Source: Eledone cirrhosa
Taxonomy: Eukaryota
Length of the DNA: 64,000 bases
Direction: 5' to 3'
Assembly: GCA_964016885.1 (NCBI GenBank)
Contig: OZ024744.1
Span: 131,254,001-131,318,000 of the forward strand
How positions within the stretch are numbered: the stretch's first letter is position 1; every line of letters starts with the position of its first letter. The translations under genes were made by a program, and so were the position numbers. The notes beneath the pieces are model-generated. The model made no database searches. It saw only the letters and a list, made by a program, of their open reading frames with translations, and had not been told where the DNA came from. This document shows positions 2,831 through 29,760 of the stretch, piece after piece.

Positions 2831-3223
2831 AACCCCAACTTCACTCAACCCCACCTTAACTCAACCCCAACTTAACTTAAGCCCAACTTCACTCAACCCC
2901 AACTTAACTTAACCCCAACTTCACTCAACCCCAACTTAACTCAACCCCAACTTAACTTAACCCCAACTTAACTTAACCCTAACTTAACTTAACCCCAACT
3001 TAACTTAACTTCGACTTAACTTAACCCCAACTTAACTTAACCCCAACTTAACTTAACCCCAACTTAACTTAACCACAAATTAACTTAACCCCAACTTAAA
3101 TTAACCCCAACTTAAATTAACCCCAACTTAACTTAACCCCAACTTAACTTAACCCCAACTTAAATTAACCCCAACTTGACTTAACCCCAAATTAACTTAA
3201 CCCCAACTTAACTTAACCCCAAA
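2831..3223 (-). repeat. Inverted satellite island type A (393 bp)
   Basis: Switch to AACCCCAACTTAACTT at GTGGTT|AACCCC and back at CCCCAAATTCGGGG. Markers CCCCACCTT, AAGCCC, TTCGAC. Confidence 0.95.
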
Positions 3224-4211: not shown

Positions 4212-4700
4212 AACTCCAACTTAAGTTAACCCCAACTTAACTTAACCCCAACTTCACTCAACCCCAACTTAACTTAACCCCAACTTCACTCAACCCCAAC
4301 TTAACTCAACCCCAACCTAACTTAACCCCAACTTCACTCAACCCCAACTTATCTTAACCCCAACTTCACTCAACCCCAACTTAACTCAACCCCAACTTAA
4401 CTTAACCCCAACTTAACTTAACCCTAACTTAACTTAACCCCGACTTAACTTAACCTCGACTTAACTTAACCCCAACTTAATTTAACCCCAACTTAACTTA
4501 ACCCCAACTTAACTTAACCACAAATTAACTTAACCCCAACTTCAATTAACTCCAACTTAACTTAACCCCAACTTAACTTAACCCCAACTTAACTTAACCC
4601 CAACTTAACTCACACCCAACTTACCTTACCCCCAACTTAACTTAACCCCAACTTGACTTAACCCCAACTTAACTTAACCCCAACTTAACTTAACCCCAAA
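4212..4700 (-). repeat. Inverted satellite island type B (489 bp)
   Basis: Starts GGGGTT|AACTCCAACTTAAGTTAACCCC and ends CCCCAAATTCGGGG. Markers CCTAAC, TTATCTT, CCTCGAC, CTCACACCC. Confidence 0.95.
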
Positions 4701-6849: not shown

Positions 6850-7210
6850 AACCCCAACTTCACTCAACCCCACCTTAACTCAACCCCAACTTAACTTAAC
6901 CCCAACTTCACTCAACCCCAACTTAACTTAACCCCAACTTCACTCAACCCCAACTTAAATCAACCCCAACTTAACATAACCCCAACTTAACTTAACCCTA
7001 ACTTAACTTAACCCCGACTTAACTTAACTTCGAATTAACTTAACCCCAACTTAACTTAACCCCAACTTAACTTAACCCCAACTTAACTTAACCACAAATT
7101 AACTTAACCCCAACTTAACTCACACCCAACTTAACTTACCCCCAACTTAACTTAACCCCAACTTGACTTAACCCCAAATTAACTTAACCCCAACTTAACT
7201 TAACCCCAAA
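6850..7210 (-). repeat. Inverted satellite island type C (361 bp)
   Basis: GTGGTT|AACCCC to CCCCAAATTCGGGG. Markers AACATAAC, TTCGAATT, CTCACACCC. Confidence 0.95.
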
Positions 7211-7803
7211 TTCGGGGTTAAGTTAAGTTGGGGTTAAGTTAAGTTAGGCTTAACTTAAGTTGGGGTTAAGTTAAGTTGGGGGTAAGTTAAGTTCTGGGTA
7301 AGTTAAGTTGGGGTTAAGTTAAGTTGGGGTTAAGTTGGGGTTAAGTTAAGTTAGGGTTAAGTTAAGTTGGGGTTGAGTTAAGTTGGGGTTAAGTTAAGTT
7401 AGGGTTAATTTAAGTTGGGGCTAAGTTAAGTTGGGGCTGAGTTAAGTTGGGGTTAAGTTAAGTTGGGGTTAAGTTAAGTTGGGGATAAGTTAAGTTGGGG
7501 TTAAGTTAAGTTGGGGTTTATTTAAGTTGGGGTTAATTTAAGTTGGGGTTCAGTTAAGTTGGGGTTAAGTTAAGTTGGGGTTAAGTTAAGTTGGGGTTAA
7601 GTTAAGTTGGTGTTAAGTTAAGTTGGGTTTAAGTTAAGTTGGGGTTAAGTTAAGTTGGGGTCAAGTTAAGTTGGGGTTAAGTTAAGTTGGTTAGTTAAGT
7701 TGAGTTTAAGTTAAGTTGGGGTTAATTTATGTTGGGGTTAAGTTAAGTTGGGGTTAAGTTAAGTTGGGGTTAAGTTAAGTTGGGGTTAAGTTAAGTTGGG
7801 GTT

Positions 7804-8004
7804 AACCCCAACTTAACTTAACCCCAACTTCACTCAACCCCAACGTAACTCAACCCCAACTTAACTTAACCCCAACTTCACTCAACCCCAACTTAACTTA
7901 ACCCCAACTTCACTCAACCCCAACTTAAGTCAACCCCAACTTAACTTAACCCCAACTTGACTTAACCCCAACTTAACTTAGCACCAACTTAACTTAAGCC
8001 CAAA
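7804..8004 (-). repeat. Inverted satellite island type D (201 bp)
   Basis: GGGGTT|AACCCC to GCCCAAAGCCGGGG. Markers AACGTAAC, TAGCACC. Confidence 0.95.
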
Positions 8005-8264
8005 GCCGGGGTTAAGTTAAGTTGGCGTTAAGTTAAGTTAGGCTTAACTTAAGTTGGGGTTCAGTTAAGTTGGGGGTAAGTTAAGTTGGGGGTAAGTTAA
8101 GTTGGGGTTCAGTTAAGTTGGGGTTAAGTCAAGTTGGGGTTAAGTTGGGGTTAAATTAAGTTGGGGTTAAGTTAAGTTGGGGTCAAGTTAAGTTAGGGTT
8201 AAGTTAAGTTGGGGTTAAGTTAAGTTGGGGTTAAGTTAATTTGTGGTTAAGTTAAGTTGGGGTT

Positions 8265-8465
8265 AACCCCAACTTAACTTAACCCCAACTTCACTCAAAC
8301 CCAACTTAACTCAACCCCAACTTAACTTAACCCCAGCTTCACTCAACCCCAACTTAACTTAACCCCAACTTCACTCAACCCCAACTTAACTCCACCGCAA
8401 CTTAACTTAACCCCAACTTGACTTAGCCCCAACTTAACTTAACCCCAACTTAACTTAACCCAAAA
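8265..8465 (-). repeat. Inverted satellite island type E (201 bp, diverged copy)
   Basis: GGGGTT|AACCCC to CCCAAAAGTCGGGG. Markers CAAACCC and CCAGCTTC, plus private CTCCACCGC. Confidence 0.95.
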
Positions 8466-11182
8466 GTCGGGGTTAAGTTAAGTTGGGGGTAAGTTAAGTT
8501 GGGATTAAGTTAAGTTGCGGTTAAGTTGGGGTTAAGTTAAGTTGGGGTTAAGTTAAGTCGGGGTAAGTTAAGTCGGGGTTAAGTTAAGTTAGGGTTAAGT
8601 TAAGTTGGGGTTAAGTTAAAGTTGGGGTTGAGTTAAGTTGCGGTTGAGTTAAATTGGGGTTGAGTTAAGTTGGGGTTGAGTGAAGTTGGTGTTGAGTTAA
8701 GTTGGGGTTAAGTTAAGTTGGGGTTAAGTTATGTTGCGGTTAAGTTAAGTTGAGTTTAAGTTAAGTTGGGGTTAACTTAAGTGTGGGTTAAGTTCAGTTG
8801 GGGTTAAGTTAAGTTGGGGTTGAGTTAAGTTGGGGTTGAGTTAAATTGGGGTTGAGTTAAGTTGGGGTTGAGTTAAGTTGGTGTTGAATTAAGTTGGGGT
8901 TAGGTTAAGTTGGGGTTAAGTTAAGTTGCGGTTAAGTTAAGTTGAGGTTAAGTTAAGTTGGGGTTAACTTAAGTGTGGATTAAGTTAAGTTGGGGTTAAG
9001 TTAAGTTGGGGTTAAGTTAAGTTGGTGTTAAGTTAAGTTGGGGCTGAGTTAAGTTGGGGCTGAGTTAAGTTGGGGCTGAGTTAAGTTGGGGTTCAGTTAA
9101 GTTGGGGTTGAGTTAAGTTGCGGTTAAGTTAAGTTGGGGTTAAGTTAAGTTGGGGTTATGTTAAGTTGGGGTTAAGGTAGGTTGGGGTTAAGTTAATTTG
9201 GGGTTGAGTTAAGTTGGGGTTGAGTTAAATTGGGGTTGAGTTAAGTTGGGGTTGAGTTAAGTTGGTGTTGAGTTAAGTTGGGGTTAAGTTAAGTTGGGGT
9301 TAAGTTAAGTTGCGATTAAGTTAAGTTGAGGTTAAGTTAAGTTGGGGTTAACTTAAGTGTGGGTTAAGTTAAGTTAAGGTTAAGTTAAGTTGGGGTTAAG
9401 TTAAGTTGGGGTTAAGTTAAGTTGGGGTTAAGTTAAGTTGGTGTTAAGTTAAGTTGGGGCTGAGTTAAGTTGGGGCTGAGTTAAGTTGGGGCTGAGTTAA
9501 GTTGGGGTTCAGTTAAGTTGGGGTTGAGTTAAGTTGCGGTTAAGTTAAGTTGGGGTTAAGTTAAGTTGGGGTTATGTTAAGTTGGGGTTTAGTTAAGTTG
9601 GGGTTCATTTAAGTTGGGGTTAAGTTAAGTTTAGGTTAAGTTGGGGTTAAATTAATTTGGGGTTAAGTTAAGTTGGGGTTAAGTTAAGTTGGGGTTAATT
9701 TAAGTTGGGGTTAATTTAAGTTGGGGTTAAGTTAAGTTGCGGGTAATTTAAGTTGGGGTTAAGTTAAGTTGGGGTTAAGTTAAGTTGGGGTTAAGTTAAG
9801 TTGGGGTTAAGTTAAGTTTGGGTTAAGTTAAGTTGGGGCTAATTTAAGTTGGGGCTGAGTTAAGTTGGGGTTAAGTTAAGTTGGGGTTAAGTTAATTTGG
9901 GGTTAAGTTGGGGTTAAGTTAAGTTGCGGTTTATTTAAGTTGGGGTTAAGTTAAGTTGGGGTTCAGTTAAGTTGGGGTTCAGTTAAGTTGGGGTTAAGTT
10001 AAGTTGGGGTTAAGTTAAGTTGGTTAGTTAAGTTGAGGTTAAGTTAAGTTGGGGTTAAGTTAAGTTGGGGTTAAGTTAAGTTGGGGTTAATTTAAGTTGG
10101 GGCTAAGTTAAGTTGGGGCTAAGTTAAGTTGGAGCTAAGTTAAGTTGGGTTTAAGTTAAGGTGGGGTTAAGTTAAGTTGAGGTTAAGTTAAGTTGGGGTT
10201 AAGTTAAGTTGGTGTTAAGTTAAGTTGGGGCTGAGTTAAGTTGGGGCTGAGTTAAGTTGGGGCTGAGTTAAGTTGGGGTTGAGTTAAGTTGGGGTTGAGT
10301 TACGTTGCGGTTAAGTTAAGTTGGGGTTAAGTTAAGTTGGGGTTATGTTAAGTTGGGGTTAAGTTAAGTTGGGGTTGAGTTAAGTTGGGGTTGAGTTAAA
10401 TTGGGGTTGAGTTAAGTTGGGGTTGAGTTAAGTTGGTGTTGAGTTAAGTTGGGATTAAGTTAAGTTGGGGTTAAGTTAAGTTGCGGTTAAGTTAAGGTGA
10501 GGTTAAGTTAAGTTGGGGTTAACTTAAGTTGGGGTTAAGTTAAGTTGGGGTTAAGTTAAGTTGGGGTTAAGTTAAGTTGGTGTTAAGTTAAGTTGGGGCT
10601 GAGTTAAGTTGGGGCTGAGTTAAGTTGGGGCTGAGTTAAGTTGGGGTTCAGTTAAGTTGGGGTTGAGTTAAGTTGCGGTTAATTTAAGTTGGGGTTAAGT
10701 TAAGTTGGAGCTCATTTAAGTTGGGGTTAAGTTAAGTTGGGGTTAAGTTGGGGTTAAATTAATTTGGGGTTAAGTTAAGTTGGGGTTAAGTTAAGTTGGG
10801 GTTAAGTTAAGTTGGGGTTAATTTAAGTTGGGGTTAATTTAAGTTGCGGGTAATTTAAGTTGGGGTTAAGTTAAGTTGGGGTTAAGTTAAGTTGGGGTTA
10901 AGTTAAGTTGGGGTTAAGTTAAGTTGGGTTTAAGTTAAGTTGGGGCTGAGTTAAGTTGGGGTTAATTTAAGTTGGGGTTAAGTTAAGTTGGGGTTAAGTT
11001 AAGTTGGGGTTTATTTAAGTTGGGGTTAAGTTAAGTTGGGGTTCAGTTAAGTTGGGGTTCAGTTAAGTTGGGGTTAAGTTAAGTTGGGGTTAAGATGGGG
11101 TTAAATTAAGTTGGGGTTAAGTTAAGTTGGGGTTAAGTTAAGTTGGGGTTAAGTTAAGTTGGGGTTAAGTTAAGTTGGGGTT

Positions 11183-11326
11183 AACCCCAACTTAACTTAA
11201 CCGCAACTTCACTCAACCCCAACGTAACTCAGCCCCAACTTAACTTAACCCCAACTTCACACAACCCCAACTTCCAACTTGACTTAACCCCAACTTAACT
11301 TAGCCCCAACTTAACTTAAGCCCAAA
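11183..11326 (-). repeat. Inverted satellite island type F (short form, 144 bp)
   Basis: GGGGTT|AACCCC to GCCCAAAGTCGGGG. Markers ACCGCAAC, CTCAGCCCC, CTTCCAAC. Confidence 0.95.
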
Positions 11327-14300
11327 GTCGGGGTTAAGTTAAGTTGGCGTTAAGTTAAGTTAGGCTTAACTTAAGTTGGGGTTCAGTTAAGTTGGGGGTA
11401 AGTTAAGTTGGGGGTAAGTTAAGTTGGGGTTAAGTTAAGTTGCGGTTAAGTTGGGGTTAAGTTAAGTTAGGGTTAAGTTAAGTTGGGGTTGAGTTAAGTT
11501 GGGGTTAATTAAGTGGTGGTTATGTTAAGTTGGGGTTAAGTTAAGTTGGGGTTAATTTAAATTGGGGTTAAGTTAACTTTGTGGTTAAGTTAAGTTGGGG
11601 TTAAGTTAAGTTGGGGTAAAGTTGGGGTTGAGTTAAGTTGGGGTTGAGTGAAGTTGGGGTTAAGTTAAGTTGGGGTTAAGTTAAGTTGGGGTTAAGATAA
11701 GTCGGGGTTAAATTAAGTTGTGGTTGAGTTAAGTTGGGGTTAATTTAAGTTGGGGCTAAGTTAATTTGTGGTTAAGTTAAGTTGGGGTTAAGTTAAGTTG
11801 GGGTTAAGTTAAGTCGGGGTAAGTTAAGTCGGGGTTAAGTTAAGTTAGGGTTAAGTTAAGTTGGGGTTAAGTTAAGTTGGGGTTGAGTTAAGTTGGGGTT
11901 GAGTTAAATTGGGGTTGAGTTAAGTTGGTGTTGAGTTAAGTTGGTGTTGAGTTAAGTTGGGGTTAAGTTAAGTTGGGGTTAAGTTAAGTTGCGGTTAAGT
12001 TAAGTTGAGGTTAAGTTAAGTTGGGGTTAACTTAAGTGTGGGTTAAGTTAAGTTGGGGTTAAGTTAAGTTGGGGTTAAGTTAAGTTGGTGTTAAGTTAAA
12101 TTGGGGTTGAGTTAAGTTGGGGCTGAGTTAAGTTGGGGCTGAGTTAAGTTGTGGTTCAGTTAAGTTGGGGTTGAGTTAAGTTGCGGTTAAGTTAAGTTGG
12201 GGTTAAGTTAAGTTGGGGTTATGTTAAGTTGGGGTTAAGGTAGGTTGGGGTTAAGTTAAGTTGGGGTTGAGTTAAGTTGGGGTTGAGTTAAATTGGGGTT
12301 GAGTTAAGTTGGGGTTGAGTTAAGTTGGTGTTGAGTTAAGTTGGGGTTAAGTTAAGTTGGGGTTAAGTTAAGTTGCGGTTAAGTTAAGTTGGGGTTAAGT
12401 TAAGTTGGGGTTAAGTTAAGTTGGGGTTAAGTTAAGTTGGGGTTAAGTTAAGTTGGTGTTAAGTTAAGTTGGGGCTGAGTTAAGTTGGGGCTGAGTTAAG
12501 TTGGGGCTGAGTTAAGTTGGGGTTCAGTTAAGTTGGGGTTAAGTTAAGTTGGGGTTATGTTAAGTTGGGGTTTAGTTAAGTTGGGGTTCATTTAAGTTGG
12601 GGTTAAGTTAAGTTTAGGTTAAGTTGGGGTTAAATTAATTTGGGGTTAAGTTAAGTTGGGGTTAAGTTAAGTTGGGGTTAATTTAAGTTGGGGTTAATTT
12701 AAGTTGGGGTTAAGTTAAGTTGCGGGTAATTTAAGTTGGGGTTAAGTTAAGTTGGGGTTAAGTTAAGTTGGGGTTAAGTTAAGTTGGGGTTAAGTTAAGT
12801 TTGGGTTAAGTTAAGTTGGGGCTAATTTAAGTTGGGGCTGAGTTAAGTTGGGGTTAAGTTAAGTTGGGGTTAAGTTAATTTGGGGTTAAGTTGGGGTTAA
12901 GTTAAGTTGGGGTTTATTTAAGTTGGGGTTAAGTTAAGTTGGGGTTCAGTTAAGTTGGGGTTCAGTTAAGTTGGGGTTAAGTTAAGTTGGGGTTAAGTTA
13001 AGTTGGTTAGTTAAGTTGAGGTTAAGTTAAGTTGGGGTTAAGTTAAGTTGGGGTTAAGTTAAGTTGGGGTTAATTTAAGTTAGGGTTAAGTTAAGTTGGG
13101 GTTCAGTTAAGTTGGGGTTAAGTCAAGTTGGGGTTAAGTTGGGGTTAAATTAAGTTGGGGCTAAGTTAAGTTGGGGCTAAGTTAAGTTGGGGCTAAGTTA
13201 AGTTGGGGTTCAGTTAAGTTGGGGTTAAGTTAAGTTTGGGTTAAGTTGGGGTTAAATTAAGTTGGGGTTAAGTTAAGTTGGGGTTTAGTTAAGTTGGGGT
13301 TAATTTAAGTTGGGGTTAATTTAAGTTGCGGTTAAGTTAAGTTGGGGTTAAGTTAAGTGGTGGTTATGTTAAGTTGGGGTTAAGTTAAGTTGGGGTTAAT
13401 TTAAATTGGGGTTAAGTTAACTTTGTGGTTAAGTTAAGTTGGGGTTAAGTTAAGTTGGGGTTAAGTTAAGTTGGGGTTGCGTTAAGTCGGGGTTGAGTGA
13501 AGTTGGGGTTAAGTTAAGTTGGGGTTAATTTAAGTTGGGGTTAAGTTAAGTCGGGCTTAAGTTAAGTTGGGGTTAAGTTAATTTGGGGTTAAGTTAAGTT
13601 GGGGTTAAGTTAAGTTGGGGTTGAGTTAAGTTGGGGTTGAGTTAATTTAGGGTTAAGTTAAGTTGGGGTTAAGTTAAGTTGGGTTTAAGTTAAGTTGGGG
13701 TTAAATTAAGTTGGGGTTAAATTAAGTTGGGGTTAAGTTAAGTTGGGGGTAAGTTAAGTTGGGGGCAAGTTAAGTTGGGGTTAAGTTAAGTTGGGGTTAA
13801 ATTAAGTTGGGGTTAAGTTTAGTTGGTGTTAAGTTAAGTTGGGGTTTATTTAAGTTGGGGTTAATTAAGTTGGGGCTGAGTTAAGTTGGGGCTGAATTAA
13901 GTTGGGGTTAAGTTAAGTTGGGGTTGAGTTAAGTTGGGGTTAAGTTAAGTTGGGGTTAAGTTAAGTTGGGGTTCAGTTAAGTTGGGGTTAAGTTGGGGTT
14001 AAATTAATTTGGGGTTAAGTTAAGTTGGGGTTTAGTTTAGTTGGGGTTAAATTAAGTTGGGGTTAATTTAAGTTGGGGTTAAGTTAAGTTGCGGGTAATT
14101 TAAGTTGGGGTTAAGTTAAGTTGGGGTTAAGTTAAGTTGGGGTTAAGTTAAGTTGGGGTTAAGTTAAGTTGGGGGTAAGTTAAGTTGGGGGTAAGTTAAG
14201 TTGGGGTTAAGTTAAGTTGGGGTTAAGTTAAGTTAGGGTTAAGTTAAGTTGGGGTTGAGTTAAGTTGGGGTTAAGTTAAGTTGGGGTTATGTTAAGTTGG

Positions 14301-14540
14301 GGTTAAGTTAAGTTGGTTCGTTAAGTTGAGTTTAAGTTAAGTGGGGTTAATTTAAGTTGGGGTTAAGTTAAGTTGGGGTTAAGTTAAGTTGGGGTTAAGT
14401 TAAGTTGGGGTTAAGTTAAGTTGGGGTTCAGTTAAGTTGGGGTTAAGTCAAGTTGGGGTTAAGTTAAGTTGGGGTTATGTTAAGTTGGGGTTAAGTTAAG
14501 TTGGGGTTAAGTTAATTTGTGGTTAAGTTAAGTTGTGGTT

Positions 14541-14933
14541 AACCCCAACTTCACTCAACCCCACCTTAACTCAACCCCAACTTAACTTAAGCCCAACTTC
14601 ACTCAACCCCAACTTAACTTAACCCCAACTTCACTCAACCCCAACTTAACTCAACCCCAACTTAACTTAACCCCAACTTAACTTAACCCTAACTTAACTT
14701 AACCCCAACTTAACTTAACTTCGACTTAACTTAACCCCAACTTAACTTAACCCCAACTTAACTTAACCCCAACTTAACTTAACCACAAATTAACTTAACC
14801 ACAACTTAAATTAACCCCAACTTAAATTAACCCCAACTTAACTTAACCCCAACTTAACTTAACCCCAACTTAAATTAACCCCAACTTGACTTAACCCCAA
14901 ATTAACTTAACCCCAACTTAACTTAACCCCAAA
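14541..14933 (-). repeat. Inverted satellite island type A
   Basis: Copy of 2831-3223 with the same junctions. Confidence 0.95.
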
Positions 14934-15921
14934 TTCGGGGTTAAGTTAAGTTGGGGTTAAATTAAGTTAGGCTTAACTTAAGTTGGGGTTAAGTTAATTT
15001 GGGGTTAAGTTCGGGTTAAGATAAGTTAGGGTTAAGTTAAGTTGGGGTTGAGTTAAGTTGGGGTTAAGTTAAGTTGGGGTTAAGTTAAGTTGGGGTCAAG
15101 TTAAGTTGGGGTTAAAATTAAGTTGGGGTTAAATCAAGTTGGGGTTAAGTTAAAGTGGGGTTAATTTAGTTGGGGTTAAGTTAAGTTGGGGCTAAGTTAA
15201 GTTGGGGCTAAGTTAAGTTGGGACTAAGTTAAGTTGGGGTTAAGTTAAGTTGGGGTTAAGTTAAGTTGGGGTTAATTTAAGTTGGGATTGAGTTAAGTTG
15301 GGGTTAAGTTAAGTTGGGGTTATATTAAGTTGAGGTTAAGTTAAGTTGGGGTTAAGTTAAGTTGGGGTTCAGTTAAGTTGCGGTTAAGTTAAGTTGGGGT
15401 TAAGTTAAGTTGGGGTTAAGTTAAGTTGGGGTTAAGTTAAGTTGGGGTCAAGTTAAGTTGGGGTTAAGTTAAGTTGGGGTTAAATTAAGTTGGGGTTAAT
15501 TTAAGTTGGGGTTAATTTAAGCTGGGGTTAAGTTAAGTTGGGGATAATTTAAGTTGGGGATAAGTTAAGTTGGGGTTAAGTTAAGTTGGGTTTAAGTTAA
15601 GTTGGGGTTAAGTTAAGTTGCGGTTAAGTTAAGTTGGTTAGTTAAGTTGAGTTTAAGTTAAGTTGGGGTTAATTTAAGTTGGGGTTAAGTTACGTTGGGG
15701 TTAAGTTAAGTTGGGGCTAAGTTAAGTTGGGGTTCAGTTAAGTTGGGGTTAAATCAATTTGGGGTTAAGTTGGGGTTAAATTAATTTGGGGTTAAGTTAA
15801 GTTGGGGTTAAGTTAAGTTGGGGTTAAGTTAAGTTGGGGTTAAGTTAAGTTGGGGTTAAGTTAAGTTGGAGTTAAGTTAAGTTTGGGTTGAGTTAAGTTG
15901 GGGTTGAGTTAAATTGGGGTT

Positions 15922-16410
15922 AACTCCAACTTAAGTTAACCCCAACTTAACTTAACCCCAACTTCACTCAACCCCAACTTAACTTAACCCCAACTTCACT
16001 CAACCCCAACTTAACTCAACCCCAACCTAACTTAACCCCAACTTCACTCAACCCCAACTTATCTTAACCCCAACTTCACTCAACCCCAACTTAACTCAAC
16101 CCCAACTTAACTTAACCCCAACTTAACTTAACCCTAACTTAACTTAACCCCGACTTAACTTAACCTCGACTTAACTTAACCCCAACTTAATTTAACCCCA
16201 ACTTAACTTAACCCCAACTTAACTTAACCACAAATTAACTTAACCCCAACTTCAATTAACTCCAACTTAACTTAACCCCAACTTAACTTAACCCCAACTT
16301 AACTTAACCCCAACTTAACTCACACCCAACTTACCTTACCCCCAACTTAACTTAACCCCAACTTGACTTAACCCCAACTTAACTTAACCCCAACTTAACT
16401 TAACCCCAAA
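15922..16410 (-). repeat. Inverted satellite island type B
   Basis: Copy of 4212-4700 with the same junctions. Confidence 0.95.
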
Positions 16411-18559
16411 TTCGGGGTTAAGTTATGTTGGGGTTAAGTTAAGTTAGGCCTAACTTAAGTTGGAGTTAAGTTAAGTTTGGGGTAAGTTAAGTTGGGGGTA
16501 AGTTAAGTTGGGGTTAAGTTAAGTTGGGGTTAAGTTGGGGTTAAGTTAAGTTAGGGTTAAGTTAAGTTGGGGTTGAGTTAAGTTGGGGTTAAGTTAAGTG
16601 GTGGTTATGTTAAGTTGGGGTGAAGTTAACTGGGGTTAATTTAAATTGGTGTTAAGTTAACTTTGTGGTTAAGTTAAGTTGGGGTTAAGTTAAGTTGGGG
16701 TTAAGTTAAGTTGGGGTTGAGTTAAGTTGGGGTTGAGTGAAGTTGGGGTTAAGTTAAGTTGGGGTTAATTTAAGTTGGGGTTAAGTTAAATCGGAGTTAA
16801 GTTAAGTTGGGGTTGAGTTAAGTTGGCGTTAATTTAAGTTGGGGCTAAGTTAAGTTGGGGTTAAGTTAAGTTGAGGTTAAGTTAAGTTGGGGTTGAGTTA
16901 AGTTGGGGTTGAGTTAATTTGGGGTTAAGTTAAGTTGGGGTTAAGTTAAGTTGGGTTTAAGTTAAGTTGGGGTTAAATTAAGTTGGGGTTAAATTAAGTT
17001 GGGGTTAAGTTAAGTTGGGGGTAAGATAAGTTGGGAGCAAGTTAAGTTGGGGTTAAGTTAAGTTGGGGTTAAATTAAGTTGGGGTTAAGTTAAGTTGGGG
17101 TTATATTAAGTTGGGGTTAAGTTAAGTTGGGGTTAAGTTAAGTTGGGGTTCAGTTAAGTTGCGGTTAAGTTAAGTTGGGGTTAAGTTAAGTTGGGGTTAA
17201 GTTAAGTTGGGGTCAAGTTAAGTTGGGGTTATGTTAAGTTGGGGTTTAGTTAAGTTGGTGTTCATTTAAGTTGGGGTTAAGTTAAGTTTGGGTTAAGTTG
17301 GGGTTAAATTAAGTTGGGGTTAAGTTAAGTTGGGGTTAAGTTAAGTTGGGGTTAAGTTAAGTTGGGGTTAAGTTAAGTTGGGGTTAATTTAAGTTGGGGT
17401 TAAGTTAAGTTGCGGGTAATTTAAGTTGGGGTTAAGTTAAGTTGGGGTTAAGTTAAGTTGGGGTTAAGTTAAGTTGGGGTTAAGGTAAGTTGGGGTTAAG
17501 TTAAATTGGGGCTAAGTTAAGTTGGGGCTGAGTTAAGTTGGGGTTAAGTTAAGTTGGGGTTAAGTTAAGTTGGGGTTAAGTTAAGTTGGGGTTAAGTTAA
17601 GTTGGGGTTGAGTTAAGTTGGGGTTAAGTTAAGTAGGGGTAAGTTAAGTTGGGGTTCAGTTAAGTTGGGGTTAAGTTAAGTTGGGGTTAAGTTAAGTTGG
17701 GGTTAAGTTAAGTCGGGGTTAAGTTAAGTCGGGGTTAAGTTAAGTTAGGGTTAAGTTAAGTTGGAGTTAAGTTAAGTTGGGGTTGAGTTAAGTTGGGGTT
17801 GAGTTAAATTGGGGTTGAGTTAAGTTGGGGTTGAGTTAAGTTGGTGTTGAGTTAAGTTGGGGTTAAATTGAGTTGGGGTTAAATTAAGTTGGGGTTAAGT
17901 AAATTTGGGGGTAAGTTAAGTTGGGGGCAAGTTAAGTTGGGGCTAATTTAAGTTGGGGTTAAATTAAGTTGGGGTTACGTTAAGTTGGTGTTAAGTTAAG
18001 TTGGGGTTAATTTAAGTTGGGGTTAATTAAGTTAGGGTTAAGTTAAGTTGGGGTTAAGTTAAGTTGGGGTTAATTTAAGTTGGGGTTGAGTTAAGTTAGG
18101 GTTAAGTTAAGTTGGGGTTATATTAAGTTGGGGTTAAGTTAAGTTGGGGTTAAGTTAAGTTGGGGTTCAGTTAAGTTGCGGTTAAGTTAAGTTGGGGTTA
18201 AGTTAAGTTGGGGTTAAGTTAAGTTGGGGTTAAGTTAAGTTGGAGTCAAGTTAAGTTGGGGTTAAGTTAAGTTGGGGTTAAGTTAAGTTGGTTAGTTAAG
18301 TTGAGTTTAAGTTAAGTTGGGGTTAATTTAAGTTGGGGTTAAGTTAAGTTGGGGTTAAGTTAAGTTGGGGTTAAGTTAAGTTGGGGTTAAGTTAAGTTGG
18401 GGTTCAGTTAAGTTGGGGTTAAGTCAAGTTGGGGTTAATTTGGGGTTAAATTAATTTGGGGTTAAGTTAAGTTGGGGTTAAGTTAAGTTGGGGTTATGTT
18501 AAGTTGGGGTTAAGTTAAGTTGGGTTTAAGTTAATTCGTGGTTAAGTTAAGTTGTGGTT

Positions 18560-18920
18560 AACCCCAACTTCACTCAACCCCACCTTAACTCAACCCCAAC
18601 TTAACTTAACCCCAACTTCACTCAACCCCAACTTAACTTAACCCCAACTTCACTCAACCCCAACTTAAATCAACCCCAACTTAACATAACCCCAACTTAA
18701 CTTAACCCTAACTTAACTTAACCCCGACTTAACTTAACTTCGAATTAACTTAACCCCAACTTAACTTAACCCCAACTTAACTTAACCCCAACTTAACTTA
18801 ACCACAAATTAACTTAACCCCAACTTAACTCACACCCAACTTAACTTACCCCCAACTTAACTTAACCCCAACTTGACTTAACCCCAAATTAACTTAACCC
18901 CAACTTAACTTAACCCCAAA
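18560..18920 (-). repeat. Inverted satellite island type C
   Basis: Copy of 6850-7210. Confidence 0.95.
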
Positions 18921-19513
18921 TTCGGGGTTAAGTTAAGTTGGGGTTAAGTTAAGTTAGGCTTAACTTAAGTTGGGGTTAAGTTAAGTTGGGGGTAAGTTAA
19001 GTTCTGGGTAAGTTAAGTTGGGGTTAAGTTAAGTTGGGGTTAAGTTGGGGTTAAGTTAAGTTAGGGTTAAGTTAAGTTGGGGTTGAGTTAAGTTGGGGTT
19101 AAGTTAAGTTAGGGTTAATTTAAGTTGGGGCTAAGTTAAGTTGGGGCTGAGTTAAGTTGGGGTTAAGTTAAGTTGGGGTTAAGTTAAGTTGGGGATAAGT
19201 TAAGTTGGGGTTAAGTTAAGTTGGGGTTTATTTAAGTTGGGGTTAATTTAAGTTGGGGTTCAGTTAAGTTGGGGTTAAGTTAAGTTGGGGTTAAGTTAAG
19301 TTGGGGTTAAGTTAAGTTGGTGTTAAGTTAAGTTGGGTTTAAGTTAAGTTGGGGTTAAGTTAAGTTGGGGTCAAGTTAAGTTGGGGTTAAGTTAAGTTGG
19401 TTAGTTAAGTTGAGTTTAAGTTAAGTTGGGGTTAATTTATGTTGGGGTTAAGTTAAGTTGGGGTTAAGTTAAGTTGGGGTTAAGTTAAGTTGGGGTTAAG
19501 TTAAGTTGGGGTT

Positions 19514-19714
19514 AACCCCAACTTAACTTAACCCCAACTTCACTCAACCCCAACGTAACTCAACCCCAACTTAACTTAACCCCAACTTCACTCAACCCCA
19601 ACTTAACTTAACCCCAACTTCACTCAACCCCAACTTAAGTCAACCCCAACTTAACTTAACCCCAACTTGACTTAACCCCAACTTAACTTAGCACCAACTT
19701 AACTTAAGCCCAAA
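19514..19714 (-). repeat. Inverted satellite island type D
   Basis: Copy of 7804-8004. Confidence 0.95.
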
Positions 19715-21411
19715 GCCGGGGTTAAGTTAAGTTGGCGTTAAGTTAAGTTAGGCTTAACTTAAGTTGGGGTTCAGTTAAGTTGGGGGTAAGTTAAGTTGGG
19801 GGTAAGTTAAGTTGGGGTTAAGTTAAGTTGCGTTTAAGTTGGGGTTAAGTTAAGTTAGGGTTAAGTTAAGTTGGGGTTAAGTTAAGTTGGGGTTAATTTA
19901 AATTGGGGTTAAGTTAACTTTGTGGTTAAGTTAAGTTGGGGTTAAGTTAAGTTGGGGTTAAGTTGGGGTTAATTTAAGTTGGGGCTAAGTTAATTTGTGG
20001 TTAAGTTAAGTTGGGGTTAAGTTAAGTTGGGGTTAAGTTAAGTTGGGGTTGAGTTAAGTTGGGGTTGAGTTAATTTGGGGTTAAATTAAGTTGGGGTTAA
20101 GTTAAGTTGGGGGTAAGTTAAGTTGGGGCTAAGTTAAGTTGGGGTTAAATTAAGTTGGGGTTACGTTAAGTTGGTGTTAAGTTAAGTTGGGGTTAATTTA
20201 AGTTGGGGTTAATTAAGTTGGGGTTAAGTTAAGTTGGGGTTAAGTTAAGTTGGGGTTTATTTAAGTTGGGGTTAAGTTAAGTTGGGGTTCAGTTAAGTTG
20301 GGGTTAAGTTAAGTTGGGGTTAAGATGGGGTTAAATTAAGTTGGGGTTAAGTTAAGTTGGGGTTAAGTTAAGTCGGGGTTAAGTTAAGGTAGGGTTCAGT
20401 TAAGTTGGGGTTAAGTTAAGTTGGGGTTGAGTTAAGTTGGGGTTGAGTTAAATTGGTGTTGAGTTAAGTTGGGGTTAAGTTAAGTTGGGGTTAAGTTAAG
20501 TTGCAGTTAAGTTAAGTTGAGGTTAAGTTAAGGTGCGGTTAAGTTAAGCTGGGGCTAAGTTAAGTTGGGGCTAAGTTAAGTTGGGGCTAAGTTACGTTGG
20601 GGTTAGGTTAAGTTGGGGTTAAGTTAAGTCGGGGTTAAGTTAAGTTGGCGTTAAGTTAAGTTGGGGTTAATTTAAGTTGGGGTTAGGTTAAGTTGGGGTT
20701 AATTTAAGTTGGGGTTAAGTTAAGTTGCGGGTAATTTAAGTTGGGGTTAAGTTAAGTTGGGGTTAAGTTAAGTTGGGGTTAAGTTAAGTTGGGGTTGAGT
20801 TAAGTTGGGGTTAAGTTAAGTTGGGGTTAAGTTAAGTTGGGGTTCAGTTAAGTTGGGGTTAAGTTGGGGTTAAATTAATTTGGGGTTAAGTTAAGTTGGG
20901 GTTTAGTTTAGTTGGGGTTAAATTAAGTTGGGGTTAATTTAAGTTGGGGTTAAGTTAAGTTGCGGGTAATTTAAGTTGGGGTTAAGTTAAGTTGGGGTTA
21001 AGTTAAGTTGGGGTTAAGTTAAGTTGGGGTTAAGTTAAGTTGGGGGTAAGTTAAGTTGGGGGTAAGTTAAGTTGGGGTTAAGTTAAGTTGGGGTTAAGTT
21101 AAGTTAGGGTTAAGTTAAGTTGGGGTTGAGTTAAGTTGGGGTTAAGTTAAGTTGGGGTTATGTTAAGTTGGGGTTAAGTTAAGTTGGTTCGTTAAGTTGA
21201 GTTTAAGTTAAGTGGGGTTAATTTAAGTTGGGGTTAAGTTAAGTTGGGGTTAAGTTAAGTTGGGGTTAAGTTAAGTTGGGGTTAAGTTAAGTTGGGGTTC
21301 AGTTAAGTTGGGGTTAAGTCAAGTTGGGGTTAAGTTAAGTTGGGGTTATGTTAAGTTGGGGTTAAGTTAAGTTGGGGTTAAGTTAATTTGTGGTTAAGTT
21401 AAGTTGTGGTT

Positions 21412-21804
21412 AACCCCAACTTCACTCAACCCCACCTTAACTCAACCCCAACTTAACTTAAGCCCAACTTCACTCAACCCCAACTTAACTTAACCCCAAC
21501 TTCACTCAACCCCAACTTAACTCAACCCCAACTTAACTTAACCCCAACTTAACTTAACCCTAACTTAACTTAACCCCAACTTAACTTAACTTCGACTTAA
21601 CTTAACCCCAACTTAACTTAACCCCAACTTAACTTAACCCCAACTTAACTTAACCACAAATTAACTTAACCCCAACTTAAATTAACCCCAACTTAAATTA
21701 ACCCCAACTTAACTTAACCCCAACTTAACTTAACCCCAACTTAAATTAACCCCAACTTGACTTAACCCCAAATTAACTTAACCCCAACTTAACTTAACCC
21801 CAAA
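21412..21804 (-). repeat. Inverted satellite island type A
   Basis: Same markers and junctions as 2831-3223. Confidence 0.95.
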
Positions 21805-22680
21805 TTCGGGGTTAAGTTAAGTTGGGGTTAAATTAAGTTAGGCTTAACTTAAGTTGGGGTTAAGTTAATTTGGGGTTAAGTTCGGGTTAAGTTAAGTTAG
21901 GGTTAAGTTAAGTTGGGGTTGAGTTAAGTTGGGGTTAAGTTAAGTTGGGGTTAAGTTAAGTTGGGGTCAAGTTAAGTTGGGGTTAAAATTAAGTTGGGGT
22001 TAAATCAAGTTGGGGTTAAGTTAAAGTGGGGTTAATTTAGTTGGGGTTAAGTTAAGTTGGGGCTAAGTTAAGTTGGGGCTAAGTTAAGTTGGGACTAAGT
22101 TAAGTTGGGGTTAAGTTAAGTTGGGGTTAAGTTAAGTTGGGGTTAATTTAAGTTGGGGTTAAGTTAAGTTGGGGTTAAGTTAAGTTGGGGTTAAGTTAAG
22201 TTGGGGTCAAGTTAAGTTGGGGTTAAGTTAAGTTGGGGTTAAATTAAGTTGGGGTTAATTTAAGTTGGGGTTAATTTAAGCTGGGGTTAAGTTAAGTTGG
22301 GGATAATTTAAGTTGGGGATAAGTTAAGTTGGGGTTAAGTTAAGTTGGGTTTAAGTTAAGTTGGGGTTAAGTTAAGTTGCGGTTAAGTTAAGTTGGTTAG
22401 TTAAGTTGAGTTTAAGTTAAGTTGGGGTTAATTTAAGTTGGGGTTAAGTTACGTTGGGGTTAAGTTAAGTTGGGGCTAAGTTAAGTTGGGGTTCAGTTAA
22501 GTTGGGGTTAAATCAATTTGGGGTTAAGTTGGGGTTAAATTAATTTGGGGTTAAGTTAAGTTGGGGTTAAGTTAAGTTGGGGTTAAGTTAAGTTGGGGTT
22601 AAGTTAAGTTGGGGTTAAGTTAAGTTGGAGTTAAGTTAAGTTTGGGTTGAGTTAAGTTGGGGTTGAGTTAAATTGGGGTT

Positions 22681-23169
22681 AACTCCAACTTAAGTTAACC
22701 CCAACTTAACTTAACCCCAACTTCACTCAACCCCAACTTAACTTAACCCCAACTTCACTCAATCCCAACTTAACTCAACCCCAACCTAACTTAACCCCAA
22801 CTTCACTCAACCCCAACTTATCTTAACCCCAACTTCACTCAACCCCAACTTAACTCAACCCCAACTTAACTTAACCCCAACTTAACTTAACCCTAACTTA
22901 ACTTAACCCCGACTTAACTTAACCTCGACTTAACTTAACCCCAACTTAATTTAACCCCAACTTAACTTAACCCCAACTTAACTTAACCACAAATTAACTT
23001 AACCCCAACTTCAATTAACCCCAACTTAACTTAACCCCAACTTAACTTAACCCCAACTTAACTTAACCCCAACTTAACTCACACCCAACTTACCTTACCC
23101 CCAACTTAACTTAACCCCAACTTGACTTAACCCCAACTTAACTTAACCCCAACTTAACTTAACCCCAAA
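22681..23169 (-). repeat. Inverted satellite island type B
   Basis: Same markers and junctions as 4212-4700. Confidence 0.95.
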
Positions 23170-25286
23170 TTCGGGGTTAAGTTATGTTGGGGTTAAGTTA
23201 AGTTAGGCCTAACTTAAGTTGGAGTTAAGTTAAGTTGGGGGTAAGTTAAGTTGGGGGTAAGTTAAGTTGGGGTTAAGTTAAGTTGGGGTTAAGTTGGGGT
23301 TAAGTTAAGTTAGGGTTAAGTTAAGTTGGGGTTGAGTTAAGTTGGGGTTAAGTTAAGTGGTGGTTATGTTAAGTTGGGGTGAAGTTAACTGAGGTTAATT
23401 TAAATTGGTGTTAAGTTAACTTTGTGGTTAAGTTAAGTTGGGGTTAAGTTAAGTTGGGGTTAAGTTAAGTTGGGGTTGAGTTAAGTTGGGGTTGAGTGAA
23501 GTTGGGGTTAAGTTAAGTTGGGGTTAATTTAAGTTGGGGTTAAGTTAAATCGGAGTTAAGTTAAGTTGGGGTTGAGTTAAGTTGGCGTTAATTTAAGTTG
23601 GGGCTAAGTTAAGTTGGGGTTAAGTTAAGTTGAGGTTAAGTTAAGTTGGGGTTGAGTTAAGTTGGGGTTGAGTTAATTTGGGGTTAAGTTAAGTTGGGGT
23701 TAAGTTAAGTTGGGTTTAAGTTAAGTTGGGGTTAAATTAAGTTGGGGTTAAATTAAGTTGGGGTTAAGTTAAGTTGGGGGTAAGATAAGTTGGGAGCAAG
23801 TTAAGTTGGGGTTAAGTTAAGTTGGGGTTAAATTAAGTTGGGGTTAAGTTAAGTTGGGGTTATATTAAGTTGGGGTTAAGTTAAGTTGGGGTTAAGTTAA
23901 GTTGGGGTTCAGTTAAGTTGCGGTTAAGTTAAGTTGGGGTTAAGTTAAGTTGGGGTTAAGTTAAGTTGGGGTCAAGTTAAGTTGGGGTTATGTTAAGTTG
24001 GGGTTTAGTTAAGTTGGTGTTCATTTAAGTTGGGGTTAAGTTAAGTTTGGGTTAAGTTGGGGTTAAATTAAGTTGGGGTTAAGTTAAGTTGGGGTTAAGT
24101 TAAGTTGGGGTTAAGTTAAGTTGGGGTTAAGTTAAGTTGGGGTTAATTTAAGTTGGGGTTAAGTTAAGTTGCGGGTAATTTAAGTTGGGGTTAAGTTAAG
24201 TTGGGGTTAAGTTAAGTTGGGGTTAAGTTAAGTTGGGGTTAAGGTAAGTTGGGGTTAAGTTAAATTGGGGCTAAGTTAAGTTGGGGCTGAGTTAAGTTGG
24301 GGTTAAGTTAAGTTGGGGTTAAGTTAAGTTGGGGTTAAGTTAAGTTGGGGTTAAGTTAAGTTGGGGTTGAGTTAAGTTGGGGTTAAGTTAAGTAGGGGTA
24401 AGTTAAGTTGGGGTTCAGTTAAGTTGGGGTTAAGTTAAGTTGGGGTTAAGTTAAGTTGGGGTTAAGTTAAGTCGGGGTTAAGTTAAGTCGGGGTTAAGTT
24501 AAGTTAGGGTTAAGTTAAGTTGGGGTTGAGTTAAATTGGGGTTGAGTTAAGTTGGGGTTGAGTTAAGTTGGTGTTGAGTTAAGTTGGGGTTAAATTGAGT
24601 TGGGGTTAAATTAAGTTGGGGTTAAGTAAATTTGGGGGTAAGTTAAGTTGGGGGCAAGTTAAGTTGGGGCTAATTTAAGTTGGGGTTAAATTAAGTTGGG
24701 GTTACGTTAAGTTGGTGTTAAGTTAAGTTGGGGTTAATTTAAGTTGGGGTTAATTAAGTTAGGGTTAAGTTAAGTTGGGGTTAAGTTAAGTTGGGGTTAA
24801 TTTAAGTTGGGGTTGAGTTAAGTTAGGGTTAAGTTAAGTTGGGGTTATATTAAGTTGGGGTTAAGTTAAGTTGGGGTTAAGTTAAGTTGGGGTTCAGTTA
24901 AGTTGCGGTTAAGTTAAGTTGGGGTTAAGTTAAGTTGGGGTTAAGTTAAGTTGGGGTTAAGTTAAGTTGGAGTCAAGTTAAGTTGGGGTTAAGTTAAGTT
25001 GGGGTTAAGTTAAGTTGGTTAGTTAAGTTGAGTTTAAGTTAAGTTGGGGTTAATTTAAGTTGGGGTTAAGTTAAGTTGGGGTTAAGTTAAGTTGGGGTTA
25101 AGTTAAGTTGGGGTTAAGTTAAGTTGGGGTTCAGTTAAGTTGGGGTTAAGTCAAGTTGGGGTTAATTTGGGGTTAAATTAATTTGGGGTTAAGTTAAGTT
25201 GGGGTTAAGTTAAGTTGGGGTTATGTTAAGTTGGGGTTAAGTTAAGTTGGGTTTAAGTTAATTCGTGGTTAAGTTAAGTTGTGGTT

Positions 25287-25647
25287 AACCCCAACTTCAC
25301 TCAACCCCACCTTAACTCAACCCCAACTTAACTTAACCCCAACTTCACTCAACCCCAACTTAACTTAACCCCAACTTCACTCAACCCCAACTTAAATCAA
25401 CCCCAACTTAACATAACCCCAACTTAACTTAACCCTAACTTAACTTAACCCCGACTTAACTTAACTTCGAATTAACTTAACCCCAACTTAACTTAACCCC
25501 AACTTAACTTAACCCCAACTTAACTTAACCACAAATTAACTTAACCCCAACTTAACTCACACCCAACTTAACTTACCCCCAACTTAACTTAACCCCAACT
25601 TGACTTAACCCCAAATTAACTTAACCCCAACTTAACTTAACCCCAAA
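25287..25647 (-). repeat. Inverted satellite island type C
   Basis: Same markers and junctions as 6850-7210. Confidence 0.95.
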
Positions 25648-26240
25648 TTCGGGGTTAAGTTAAGTTGGGGTTAAGTTAAGTTAGGCTTAACTTAAGTTGG
25701 GGTTAAGTTAAGTTGGGGGTAAGTTAAGTTCTGGGTAAGTTAAGTTGGGGTTAAGTTAAGTTGGGGTTAAGTTGGGGTTAAGTTAAGTTAGGGTTAAGTT
25801 AAGTTGGGGTTGAGTTAAGTTGGGGTTAAGTTAAGTTAGGGTTAATTTAAGTTGGGGCTAAGTTAAGTTGGGGCTGAGTTAAGTTGGGGTTAAGTTAAGT
25901 TGGGGTTAAGTTAAGTTGGGGATAAGTTAAGTTGGGGTTAAGTTAAGTTGGGGTTTATTTAAGTTGGGGTTAATTTAAGTTGGGGTTCAGTTAAGTTGGG
26001 GTTAAGTTAAGTTGGGGTTAAGTTAAGTTGGGGTTAAGTTAAGTTGGTGTTAAGTTAAGTTGGGTTTAAGTTAAGTTGGGGTTAAGTTAAGTTGGGGTCA
26101 AGTTAAGTTGGGGTTAAGTTAAGTTGGTTAGTTAAGTTGAGTTTAAGTTAAGTTGGGGTTAATTTATGTTGGGGTTAAGTTAAGTTGGGGTTAAGTTAAG
26201 TTGGGGTTAAGTTAAGTTGGGGTTAAGTTAAGTTGGGGTT

Positions 26241-26441
26241 AACCCCAACTTAACTTAACCCCAACTTCACTCAACCCCAACGTAACTCAACCCCAACTTA
26301 ACTTAACCCCAACTTCACTCAACCCCAACTTAACTTAACCCCAACTTCACTCAACCCCAACTTAAGTCAACCCCAACTTAACTTAACCCCAACTTGACTT
26401 AACCCCAACTTAACTTAGCACCAACTTAACTTAAGCCCAAA
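26241..26441 (-). repeat. Inverted satellite island type D
   Basis: Same markers and junctions as 7804-8004. Confidence 0.95.
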
Positions 26442-29400
26442 GCCGGGGTTAAGTTAAGTTGGCGTTAAGTTAAGTTAGGCTTAACTTAAGTTGGGGTTCA
26501 GTTAAGTTGGGGGTAAGTTAAGTTGGGGGTAAGTTAAGTTGGGGTTAAGTTAAGTTGCGTTTAAGTTGGGGTTAAGTTAAGTTAGGGTTAAGTTAAGTTG
26601 GGGTTAAGTTAAGTTGGGGTTAATTTAAATTGGGGTTAAGTTAACTTTGTGGTTAAGTTAAGTTGGGGTTAAGTTAAGTTGGGGTTAAGTTGGGGTTAAT
26701 TTAAGTTGGGGCTAAGTTAATTTGTGGTTAAGTTAAGTTGGGGTTAAGTTAAGTTGGGGTTAAGTTAAGTTGGGGTTGAGTTAAGTTGGGGTTGAGTTAA
26801 TTTGGGGTTAAATTAAGTTGGGGTTAAGTTAAGTTGGGGGTAAGTTAAGTTGGGGCTAAGTTAAGTTGGGGTTAAATTAAGTTGGGGTTACGTTAAGTTG
26901 GTGTTAAGTTAAGTTGGGGTTAATTTAAGTTGGGGTTAATTAAGTTGGGGTTAAGTTAAGTTGGGGTTAAGTTAAGTTGGGGTTTATTTAAGTTGGGGTT
27001 AAGTTAAGTTGGGGTTCAGTTAAGTTGGGGTTAAGTTAAGTTGGGGTTAAGATGGGGTTAAATTAAGTTGGGGTTAAGTTAAGTTGGGGTTAAGTTAAGT
27101 CGGGGTTAAGTTAAGGTAGGGTTCAGTTAAGTTGGGGTTAAGTTAAGTTGGGGTTGAGTTAAGTTGGGGTTGAGTTAAATTGGTGTTGAGTTAAGTTGGG
27201 GTTAAGTTAAGTTGGGGTTAAGTTAAGTTGCAGTTAAGTTAAGTTGAGGTTAAGTTAAGGTGCGGTTAAGTTAAGTTGGGGCTAAGTTAAGTTGGGGCTA
27301 AGTTAAGTTGGGGCTAAGTTACGTTGGGGTTAGGTTAAGTTGGGGTTAAGTTAAGTCGGGGTTAAGTTAAGTTGGCGTTAATTTAAGTTGGGGTTAATTT
27401 AAGTTGGGGTTAGGTTAAGTTGGGGTTAATTTAAGTTGGGGTTAAGTTAAGTTGCGGGTAATTTAAGTTGGGGTTAAGTTAAGTTGGGGTTAAGTTAAGT
27501 TGGGGTTAAGTTAAGTTGGGGTTAAGTTAAGTTGGGGATAAGTTAAGTTGGGGTTAAGTTAAGTTGGGGTTTATTTAAGTTGGGGTTAATTTAAGTTGGG
27601 GTTCAGTTAAGTTGGGGTTCAGTTAAGTTGGGGTTAAGTTAAGTTGGGGTTATTTAAGTTGGGGTTAATTTAAGTCGGGGTTAAGTTAAGTCGGGGTTAA
27701 GTTAAGATAGGGTTAAGTTAAGTTGGGGTTAAGTTAAGTTGGGGTTGTGTTAAGTTGGGGTTGAGTTAAATTGGGGTTGAGTTAAGTTGGGGTTGAGTTA
27801 AGTTGGTGTTGAGTTAAGTTGGGGTTAAGTTAAGTTGGGGTTAATTTAAGTTGCAGTTAAGTTAAGTTGAGGTTAAGTTAAGGTGGGGTTAAGTTAAGTT
27901 GGGGTTAATTTAAGTTGGGGCTAAGCTAAGTTGGGGCTAATTTAAGTTGGGGCTAAGTTAAGTTGGGGTTAAGTTAGGTTGGGGTATATTAAGTTGGGGT
28001 TAAGTTAAGTTGGGGTTAAGTTAAGTTGGGGTTAAATTAAGTTGGTGTTAAGTTAAGTTGGGGCTGAGTTAAGTTGGGGCTGAGTTAAGTTGGGGCTGAG
28101 TTAAGTTGGGGTTAAGATAAGTTGGGGTTGAGTTAAGTTGGGGTTAAGTTAAGTTGGGGTTAAGTTAAGTTGGGGTTAAGTTGGGGTTAAGTTAAGTTAG
28201 GTTTAAGTTAAGTTGGGTTTAAGTTAAGTTGGGGTTAAGTTAAGTTGGGGTTAAGTTAAGTTGGGTTTAAGTTAAGTTGGGGTTAAGTTAAGTTGGGGTT
28301 AAGTTAAGTCGGGGTTAAGTTAAGTTGGGTTTAAGTTAAGTTGGGGTTAAGTTAAGTTGGGGTTAAGTTAAGTTGGGGTTAAGTTAAGTTGGTTAGTTAA
28401 GTTGAGTTTAAGTTAAGTTGGGGTTAATTTAAGTCGGGGTTAAGTTAAGTTAGGGTTAAGTTAAGTTGGGGTTGAGTTAAGTTGGGGTTGAGTTAAATTG
28501 GGGTTGAGTTAAGTTGGGGTTGAGTTAAGTTGGTGTTGAGTTAAGTTGGGGTTAAGTTAAGTTGGGGTTAAGTTAAGTGGTGGTTAAGTTAAGTTGAGGT
28601 TAAGTTAAGTTGGGGTTAAGTTAAGTTGGGGTTAATTTAAGTTGGGGCTAAGTTAAGTTGGGGCTAAGTTAAGTTGGGGTTAAGTTAAGTTGGGGTCAAC
28701 TTAAGTTGGGGTTAAGTTAAGTTGGCGTTAAGTTAAGTTGGGGTTAAGTTAAGTTGGGGTTAAGTTAAGTTGGTGTTAAGTTAAGTTGGGGCTGAGTTAA
28801 GTTGGGGCTGAGTTAAGTTGGGGCTGAGTTAAGTTGGGGTTCAGTCAAGTTGGGGTTGAGTTAAGTTGCGGTTAAGTTAAGTTGGGGTTAAGTTAAGTTG
28901 GGGTTATTTTAAGTTGGGGTTTAGTTAAGTTGGGGTTCATTTAAGTTGGGGTTCAGTTAAGTTTGGGTTAAGTTGGGGTTAAATTAATTTGGGGTTAAAT
29001 GAAGTTGGGGTTAAGTTAAGTTGGGGTTAAGTTAAGTTGGGGTTAATTTAAGTTGGGGTTAAGTTAACTTGCGGGTAATTTAAGTTGGGGTTAAGTTAAG
29101 TTGGCGTTAAGTTAAGTTGGGGTTAAGTTAAGTTTGGGTTAAGTTAAGTTGGGGTTGAGTTAATTTGGGGTTAAGTTAAGTTGGGGTTAAGTTAAGTTGG
29201 GGTTTATTTAAGTTGGGGTTAAGTTAAGTTGGGGTTCAGTTAAGTTGGGGTTCAGTTAAGTTGGGGTTAAGTTAAGTTGGGGTTAAGATGGGGTTAAATT
29301 AAGTTGGGGTTAAGTTAAGTTGGTTAGTTAAGTTGAGGTTAAGTTAAGTTGGGCTTAAGTTAAGTTGGGGTTAATTTAAGTTGGGGTTAAGTTAAGTTGG

Positions 29401-29559
29401 GGTTCAGTTAAGTTGGGGTTAAGTCAAGTTGGGGTTAAGTTGGGGTTAAATTAAGTTGGGGTTAAGTTAAGTTGGGGTCAAGTTAAGTTAGGGTTAAGTT
29501 AAGTTGGGGTTAAGTTAAGTTGGGATTAAGTTAATTTGTGGTTAAGTTAAGTTGGGGTT

Positions 29560-29760
29560 AACCCCAACTTAACTTAACCCCAACTTCACTCAAACCCAAC
29601 TTAACTCAACCCCAACTTAACTTAACCCCAGCTTCACTCAACCCCAACTTAACTTAACCCCAACTTCACTCAACCCCAACTTAACTCAACCCCAACTTAA
29701 CTTAACCCCAACTTGACTTAACCCCAACTTAACTTAACCCCAACTTAACTTAACCCCAAA
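29560..29760 (-). repeat. Inverted satellite island type E
   Basis: GGGGTT|AACCCC to CCCCAAAGTCGGGG. Markers CAAACCC, CCAGCTTC. Confidence 0.95.

Follow-up and report, generated by a model that had tools for sequence, protein, structure and literature searches.

Three described systems come close to the case considered here. In the Arabidopsis CEN178 arrays, sequence variants are spread by periodicity-preserving duplication together with non-allelic gene conversion (bioRxiv 10.1101/2025.06.02.657473). Quasi-palindrome correction, or short-range template switching, for which the Ripley model and the four-point model are available (PMC5453318, PMC5941160), yields perfect inverted repeats from imperfect ones; the human-chimp scan in PMC5453318 excluded repeat-masked sequence, reported that inverted matches of 12-13 bp frequently occur by chance and applied a cut-off of 14 bp. 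Finally, the satellite arrays of Tribolium madens show conserved inversion sites and macro-dyad symmetries (PMC13081366). In the literature that we searched, no title dealt with palindrome correction inside a satellite array, and a search with the motif studied here returned no title on this satellite; the motif match in one paper proved to be a match to a primer only.

The locus in question is a perfect 20-bp palindrome within a satellite array of Eledone cirrhosa. As in the CEN178 arrays, duplications and deletions of whole units copy variants along with their flanks, giving clustered differences without a special mutagen; the differences are that the monomer here is 16 bp long and half self-complementary, and that its history is read from one assembly and not from mutation-accumulation lines. 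As in quasi-palindrome correction, an imperfect inverted repeat has ended up as a perfect one, and two G>C changes are compatible with a single short stretch copied in reverse complement, whereas the intermediates are abundant and of very different age, and the four changes do not form one tract. As in T. madens, one junction sequence recurs at many orientation switches, the units next to it are diverged and hairpins of about -30 kcal/mol are predicted; unlike there, the inverted pieces are islands of 0.1-0.5 kb, the common junction is explained by descent from one inversion, and nothing points to function. The palindrome is a real but probably ordinary feature, namely one amplified satellite haplotype that ends a stepwise series most likely produced by ordinary substitution or conversion.

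The window, i.e. the whole stretch of 64,000 nucleotides analysed here (131.25-131.32 Mb of contig C28, itself 136.5 Mb long in an assembly of 3.0 Gb), is pure satellite: positions 3..64000 of the + strand comprise about 4,040 copies of period 16 with 87% matches, and 25 short islands within it are reverse-oriented. Judging from sampling, the C28 array spans about 127.0 to 135.3 Mb, i.e. roughly 8 Mb, while smaller arrays of the 16-bp satellite lie at 124.6 Mb on C28, mostly reversed in the samples, and on contig C18. We parsed 1.81 Mb of satellite, about a fifth of the array, and obtained the mutation spectrum from 1.53 Mb of that. The array is broken by non-satellite insertions of up to a few kb (near 128.56-128.63, 132.1-132.7 and 124.63-124.65 Mb), a block of at least 0.5 Mb in sampled extent (C28, about 132.8-133.3 Mb) is in the opposite orientation, islands included, and the island haplotypes at 132.1-132.7 Mb match those of the 124.6-Mb array.

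The palindrome occupies positions 16439..16458, and the first-pass annotation correctly reported it also at 23198, 56138, 57096 and 60038; a sixth copy in the window, at 4729, carries one later G>C. The annotation spoke of the monomer becoming a 20-bp palindrome, whereas the true monomer has 16 bp (numbered here T1 T2 A3 A4 G5 T6 T7 A8 A9 G10 T11 T12 G13 G14 G15 G16) and the 20-mer crosses the monomer boundary. The differences from the consensus are 16446 G>A, 16449 G>C, 16450 T>C and 16454 G>C or, in monomer numbering, G13>A, G16>C, T1'>C and G5'>C. That each of them repairs one mismatch is true on paper, about the axis 16448|16449 (hereafter the annotated axis), but in a hairpin on this axis the central four bases form the loop, so that two of the four "repaired" pairs are unable to pair within the strand. 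A better hairpin is centred on G13: there, with both G>C changes in place, arms of 10 bp become fully paired around a 5-nt loop, as in an example of the three-change parent, the AGGCTT form, at 7234..7258, while G13>A sits in the loop and T1'>C damages the stem. The predicted energy of the best hairpin is -2.3 kcal/mol for the consensus, -6.6 for the AGGCTT form and -4.0 for the palindrome (AGGCCT form); hence, hairpin stabilisation by the last change is ruled out. The 51-mers of the AGGCTT and AGGCCT forms are predicted to fold equally (-5.3 kcal/mol, + strand).

The genomic distribution of the palindrome is that of a single lineage. The exact palindrome is present in 22 copies genome-wide, all inside 0.43 Mb of C28. 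In 464 kb around the window, which contain 178 islands, 20 islands are associated with AGGCCT, 125 with AGGCTT and 33 with neither (4, 16 and 5, respectively, of the 25 islands in the window), and all 20 island-linked AGGCCT copies have three markers in common, namely an identical left end plus two flanking variants private to them, exemplified at 16423..16469 by A>T at 16426 and G>A at 16464. Such clustering of copies with private markers within one stretch indicates one event; independent recurrence of the palindrome is ruled out, the copies being one haplotype, and so is assembly error, given 23 copies in 5-6 diverged contexts. The palindrome follows B islands at 16439, 23198 and 56138, as annotated, but the copies at 57096 and 60038 follow no island, the nearest one ending at 56107; they retain the flanking markers of the haplotype, so that the island must have been lost just upstream. 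The E-type islands without the motif (8270-8472, 29565, 33085, 40207 and 47835) have apparently lost several right-flank monomers by deletion, with the downstream markers retained.

The older states are wider spread. The AGGCTT form is found in 1,050 genomic copies, some of them far from any island, and, whether island-linked or island-free, these have one common right flank; of 300 sampled copies of the lineage, 225 lie within 60 bp of a junction and 75 away from it. The form with the two G>C changes only (GTTAAG to CTTAAC, 16449..16454), the oldest core by lineage comparison, accounts for 373 copies on two contigs, in stretches without islands (68 on C18 among the 100 matches listed). The variants are thus nested, from the two G>C through the addition of G>A (1,050 copies) to that of T>C (22 copies), with a single origin for the AGGCTT form and another for the AGGCCT form, T>C at 16450 being the youngest change and the only difference between the two. 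The sequence "AGGCTT then AGGCCT", which the annotation had offered as a possibility, is therefore borne out; we infer that the first three changes in the AGGCTT lineage also came in the nested order, although no one- or two-change sister was found in that lineage's own flanks. A form with G>A and the second G>C (71 copies) was considered as the missing intermediate and rejected because of its different flanks. Elsewhere, the steps can be followed directly. In one lineage with identical flanks, G16>C stands alone in 6 copies and both G>C are present in 5; in a second one, again with identical flanks, both G>C were followed by the symmetry-breaking G15>C and only then by G13>A, which, alone, is a common variant of the array (2.5-3.4% of C28 monomers). 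On C18, G5>C is common to neighbouring monomers, so that G16>C probably came second there. A second perfect 20-bp palindrome, with an AAGCTT centre, arose from the same AGGCTT lineage via G14>A (3 copies, C28 132.83-132.92 Mb).

Other public runs provide a relative age. At 92% likeness, both the junction and AGGCTT are present in them; position 16450 is T in all X2 contigs and in 5 of 5 X5 reads, and at most 1 of 23 reads of run X6 shows neither T nor G there. The AGGCCT form itself appears in no public run examined; the read comparison at 90% likeness matched mostly ordinary monomers and is uninformative on this form. In run X1 (0.15 of words in common) the satellite was matched but nothing across 16414-16462, which is too weak for dating the junction. 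Since the other runs have T or G at 16450 together with the junction and AGGCTT, T>C is young and the rest old.

Does the array in general drift towards symmetry? In two phases, the consensus and its reverse complement agree at 8 of 16 positions, and therefore about one in six substitutions (0.165) "repairs" a pair on the annotated axis by chance. With a young substitution defined as the minority allele among at least 3 copies with identical, informative 50-bp flanks, the 1.53 Mb gave 811 such events, of which 147 were repairs on the annotated axis (145.0 expected) and 152 on the other good axis, that of G13 (171.8 expected), while 20 ended in a perfect arm of at least 8 bp (22.3 expected). 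The first 0.93 Mb yielded 49 young multi-site changes; apart from 3 reversions, the remaining 46 gave no match of more than 3 bases to a reverse-complement template. A recurrent excess of symmetry repair is thus absent from both the 811 substitutions and the 46 multi-site events. At variant sites, 130 of 151 changes returned to the consensus, polarity being assigned by majority and hence uncertain. In this spectrum, G sites are about three times as mutable as A/T sites, and G5>T, at the G between two TTAA, is a hotspot (81 young events; 21 per 10,000 versus 5-9 for G>T at other G positions). In an old amplified lineage, T2>C and G5>C together produce a perfect palindrome of 12 bp on the equivalent axis (174 sampled copies, for the most part of one family, in stretches including the 124.6-Mb array).

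At two and three changes, the 20-bp windows show no repair bias either. Of 82,678 windows on the annotated axis, 5.3% carry three changes and 0.4% four, so that, at 5.7% together, such windows are common. Variant types in which all changes are repairs number 12 of 673 at two changes (13.9 expected), 2 of 513 at three (0.96 expected) and 1 of 107 at four (0.01 expected), the last being the present palindrome. The quadruple would accordingly be rare as four independent hits; AGGCTT is, however, the second most abundant three-change type, and as one extra hit on this type the palindrome is within expectation. In the 300 sampled copies of the AGGCTT lineage, 15 of 60 possible later changes were seen, 13 of which break the symmetry and 2, deliberately sought, perfect it. 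Such perfecting changes account for 4.4% of the mutation rate across all 20 sites, and genome-wide 2 were seen versus roughly 0.8-2 expected, as scaled from the 300-copy sample or from genome-wide counts at three sites. The only changes at the last mismatched pair genome-wide are the perfecting T>C (22 copies) and G14>A (3 copies), with a joint chance of both of 0.30 x 0.40 = 0.12, which counts against the reading favoured here. Because all copies derive from one block and new mutations show no drift towards symmetry, ordinary stepwise mutation plus duplication is the most likely origin. It would have started from a repeat whose consensus was already half self-complementary; the earlier changes most likely accumulated singly, too, by ordinary substitution or conversion; block duplication would have multiplied each state, making the three-change form numerous enough to receive a fourth hit; the last step was a single T>C on this older variant.

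Which part of the cluster could nevertheless have been templated? If any switch took place, it would be one copy of 6-10 bp that made both G>C changes, G>A and T>C being separate point changes: a nascent strand primed on the 4-bp TTAA would have used the arm five bases away as template for 6-10 bases. The annotation's statement that more than one switch is needed relied on the wrong axis, on which the changes fall on both arms; only the two G>C (16449..16454) fit a single contiguous tract, on the G13 axis, so that at most one switch is required. A switch of this kind is possible but unlikely. Both G>C lie on one arm, keep the 16-bp phase and complete the perfect 10-bp stem with a predicted gain from -2.3 to -6.6 kcal/mol, and neither the AGGCTT lineage nor that at 127-128 Mb has a single-change sister; yet the same pair was built stepwise in one lineage and probably also on C18, each G>C is common alone, repairs on the G13 axis are not enriched, none of the 46 young multi-site changes is an event of this sort, the inner end lacks microhomology, and the tract falls below the 14-bp cut-off, in a range shorter than the 12-13 bp that are frequent by chance according to PMC5453318. 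The pair is modestly over-represented, in 8 lineage clusters versus 2.8 expected (rank 37 of 1,003 pair types), and the seven switch-compatible pair types make up 32 clusters versus 14.1 in matched sets (p=0.03), a comparison that is not decisive since lineage counting over-splits old lineages; 16 of the 32 clusters fall into one pair type, in which a single old family predominates, 36 pair types outrank the two-G>C pair, and most of the top 25 are not switch-compatible. The single-switch products on the annotated axis, with a fully copied right arm, have 0 genomic copies in both cases, a search outcome that falls short of proving their absence.

The neighbourhood of the junction offers further material for templated scenarios. 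The B-type island at 15926..16408 (- strand, about 30 monomers by orientation parse) ends in the right junction at 16404..16417, which belongs to the one junction family of all islands and, over 16380-16470, is predicted to form a hairpin of about -29 kcal/mol, far stronger than the palindrome hairpins; the common internal markers and the single right-junction family indicate descent of all islands from one inversion. Over 19 bp and with two shared variants, the left end of the island (15920..15939, - strand) repeats 16451-16469, the monomer directly following the palindrome, as its reverse complement. Of 178 islands, 21 have this inverted match (also at 4210, 22679 and 55619), AGGCCT accompanying it in 20 cases; its chance is estimated at below 1%, uncorrected for post-hoc choice, and on C18, too, the two-variant monomer is common, with 42 copies. 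The left end may represent an inverted templated insertion of 16 bp, set between two TTAA microhomologies that lie about 0.5 kb from each other. The right-junction centre underwent two symmetry-gaining single changes, about 1 being expected among about 11 changes in all, and, in 3 AGGCCT-haplotype copies, the junction is now a perfect 24-bp palindrome (C28 131385417, 131397381 and 131483257). This centre consists of a pentamer, resembling an arthropod telomere unit, and its reverse complement; a head-to-head fusion of telomere repeats was considered and rejected, the 8-copy array giving 2 overlapping matches versus 3 control matches. Finally, monomers 5-6 to either side of the right junction carry a T1>G doublet in mirrored arrangement (background frequency 2.2%), which suggests that the island originated by fold-back copying of its right flank. 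We regard the left-end match, the symmetry gains of the centre and the mirrored doublet as leads and not as results.

These leads could be accommodated by a weak local palindrome correction that ratchets junction neighbourhoods towards symmetry one base at a time, by inter-strand switching or inverted gene conversion inside long junction hairpins. The strong predicted hairpins and the occurrence of both perfecting changes at the last pair fit such a process, but the pooled symmetry gains are 4 versus about 2-3 expected, all four lie in hairpin loops, most changes at these sites break the symmetry, and the matches were spotted post hoc; we consider this correction highly improbable. Somewhat less so, and still doubtful, is the broader proposal that the inverted islands turn their surroundings into a zone of inverted copying within a short-period satellite, where the two G>C, both perfecting changes, the palindromic junction centre and the 19-bp patch at the B end would all go back to short switches or inverted conversions. 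Least probable of all is the strong form of the annotation's proposal, that the cluster was written beside the junction by serial template switching during the inversion itself. It could draw on the 225 of 300 copies next to a junction and on the lack of an uninverted donor of the island in 1.53 Mb, and island-free copies do not prove an earlier origin of the motif, since copies can lose the island and keep the motif, as at 57096 and 60038. Against it, T>C is far younger than the junction, being confined to one sub-haplotype and unseen in the runs that have the junction and AGGCTT; the two-change form arises in arrays without islands; and the island mirrors its right flank at the doublet yet carries no motif at the mirrored place, so that the motif would postdate the inversion. 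Even the milder version, a hairpin-templated cluster beside the junction, is not supported, for both outcomes that the annotation had named as refuting it were observed: windows with three or four changes are common and repair bias is lacking, at two and three changes as in young mutations, and the motif is frequent in island-free array (52 copies in 210 kb without any junction). The link between motif and junction is one of common descent in a duplicated block, and no function is proposed for it.

If local correction were at work, short-range template switching would extend into satellite DNA, which was masked out in the scan of PMC5453318, and dyad symmetry at satellite inversion sites could be accounted for by mutation without selection. 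If the islands were indeed zones of inverted copying, satellite inversion junctions would ratchet towards perfect palindromes, and one long-read assembly would suffice to count such steps. For the stepwise origin favoured here, the absence of symmetry-repair bias among young mutations in 1.5 Mb of quasi-palindromic satellite is a useful negative; otherwise, the palindrome matters little except as an illustration of how, through duplication, one lucky haplotype comes to mimic a recurrent mutational signature in a self-complementary repeat.
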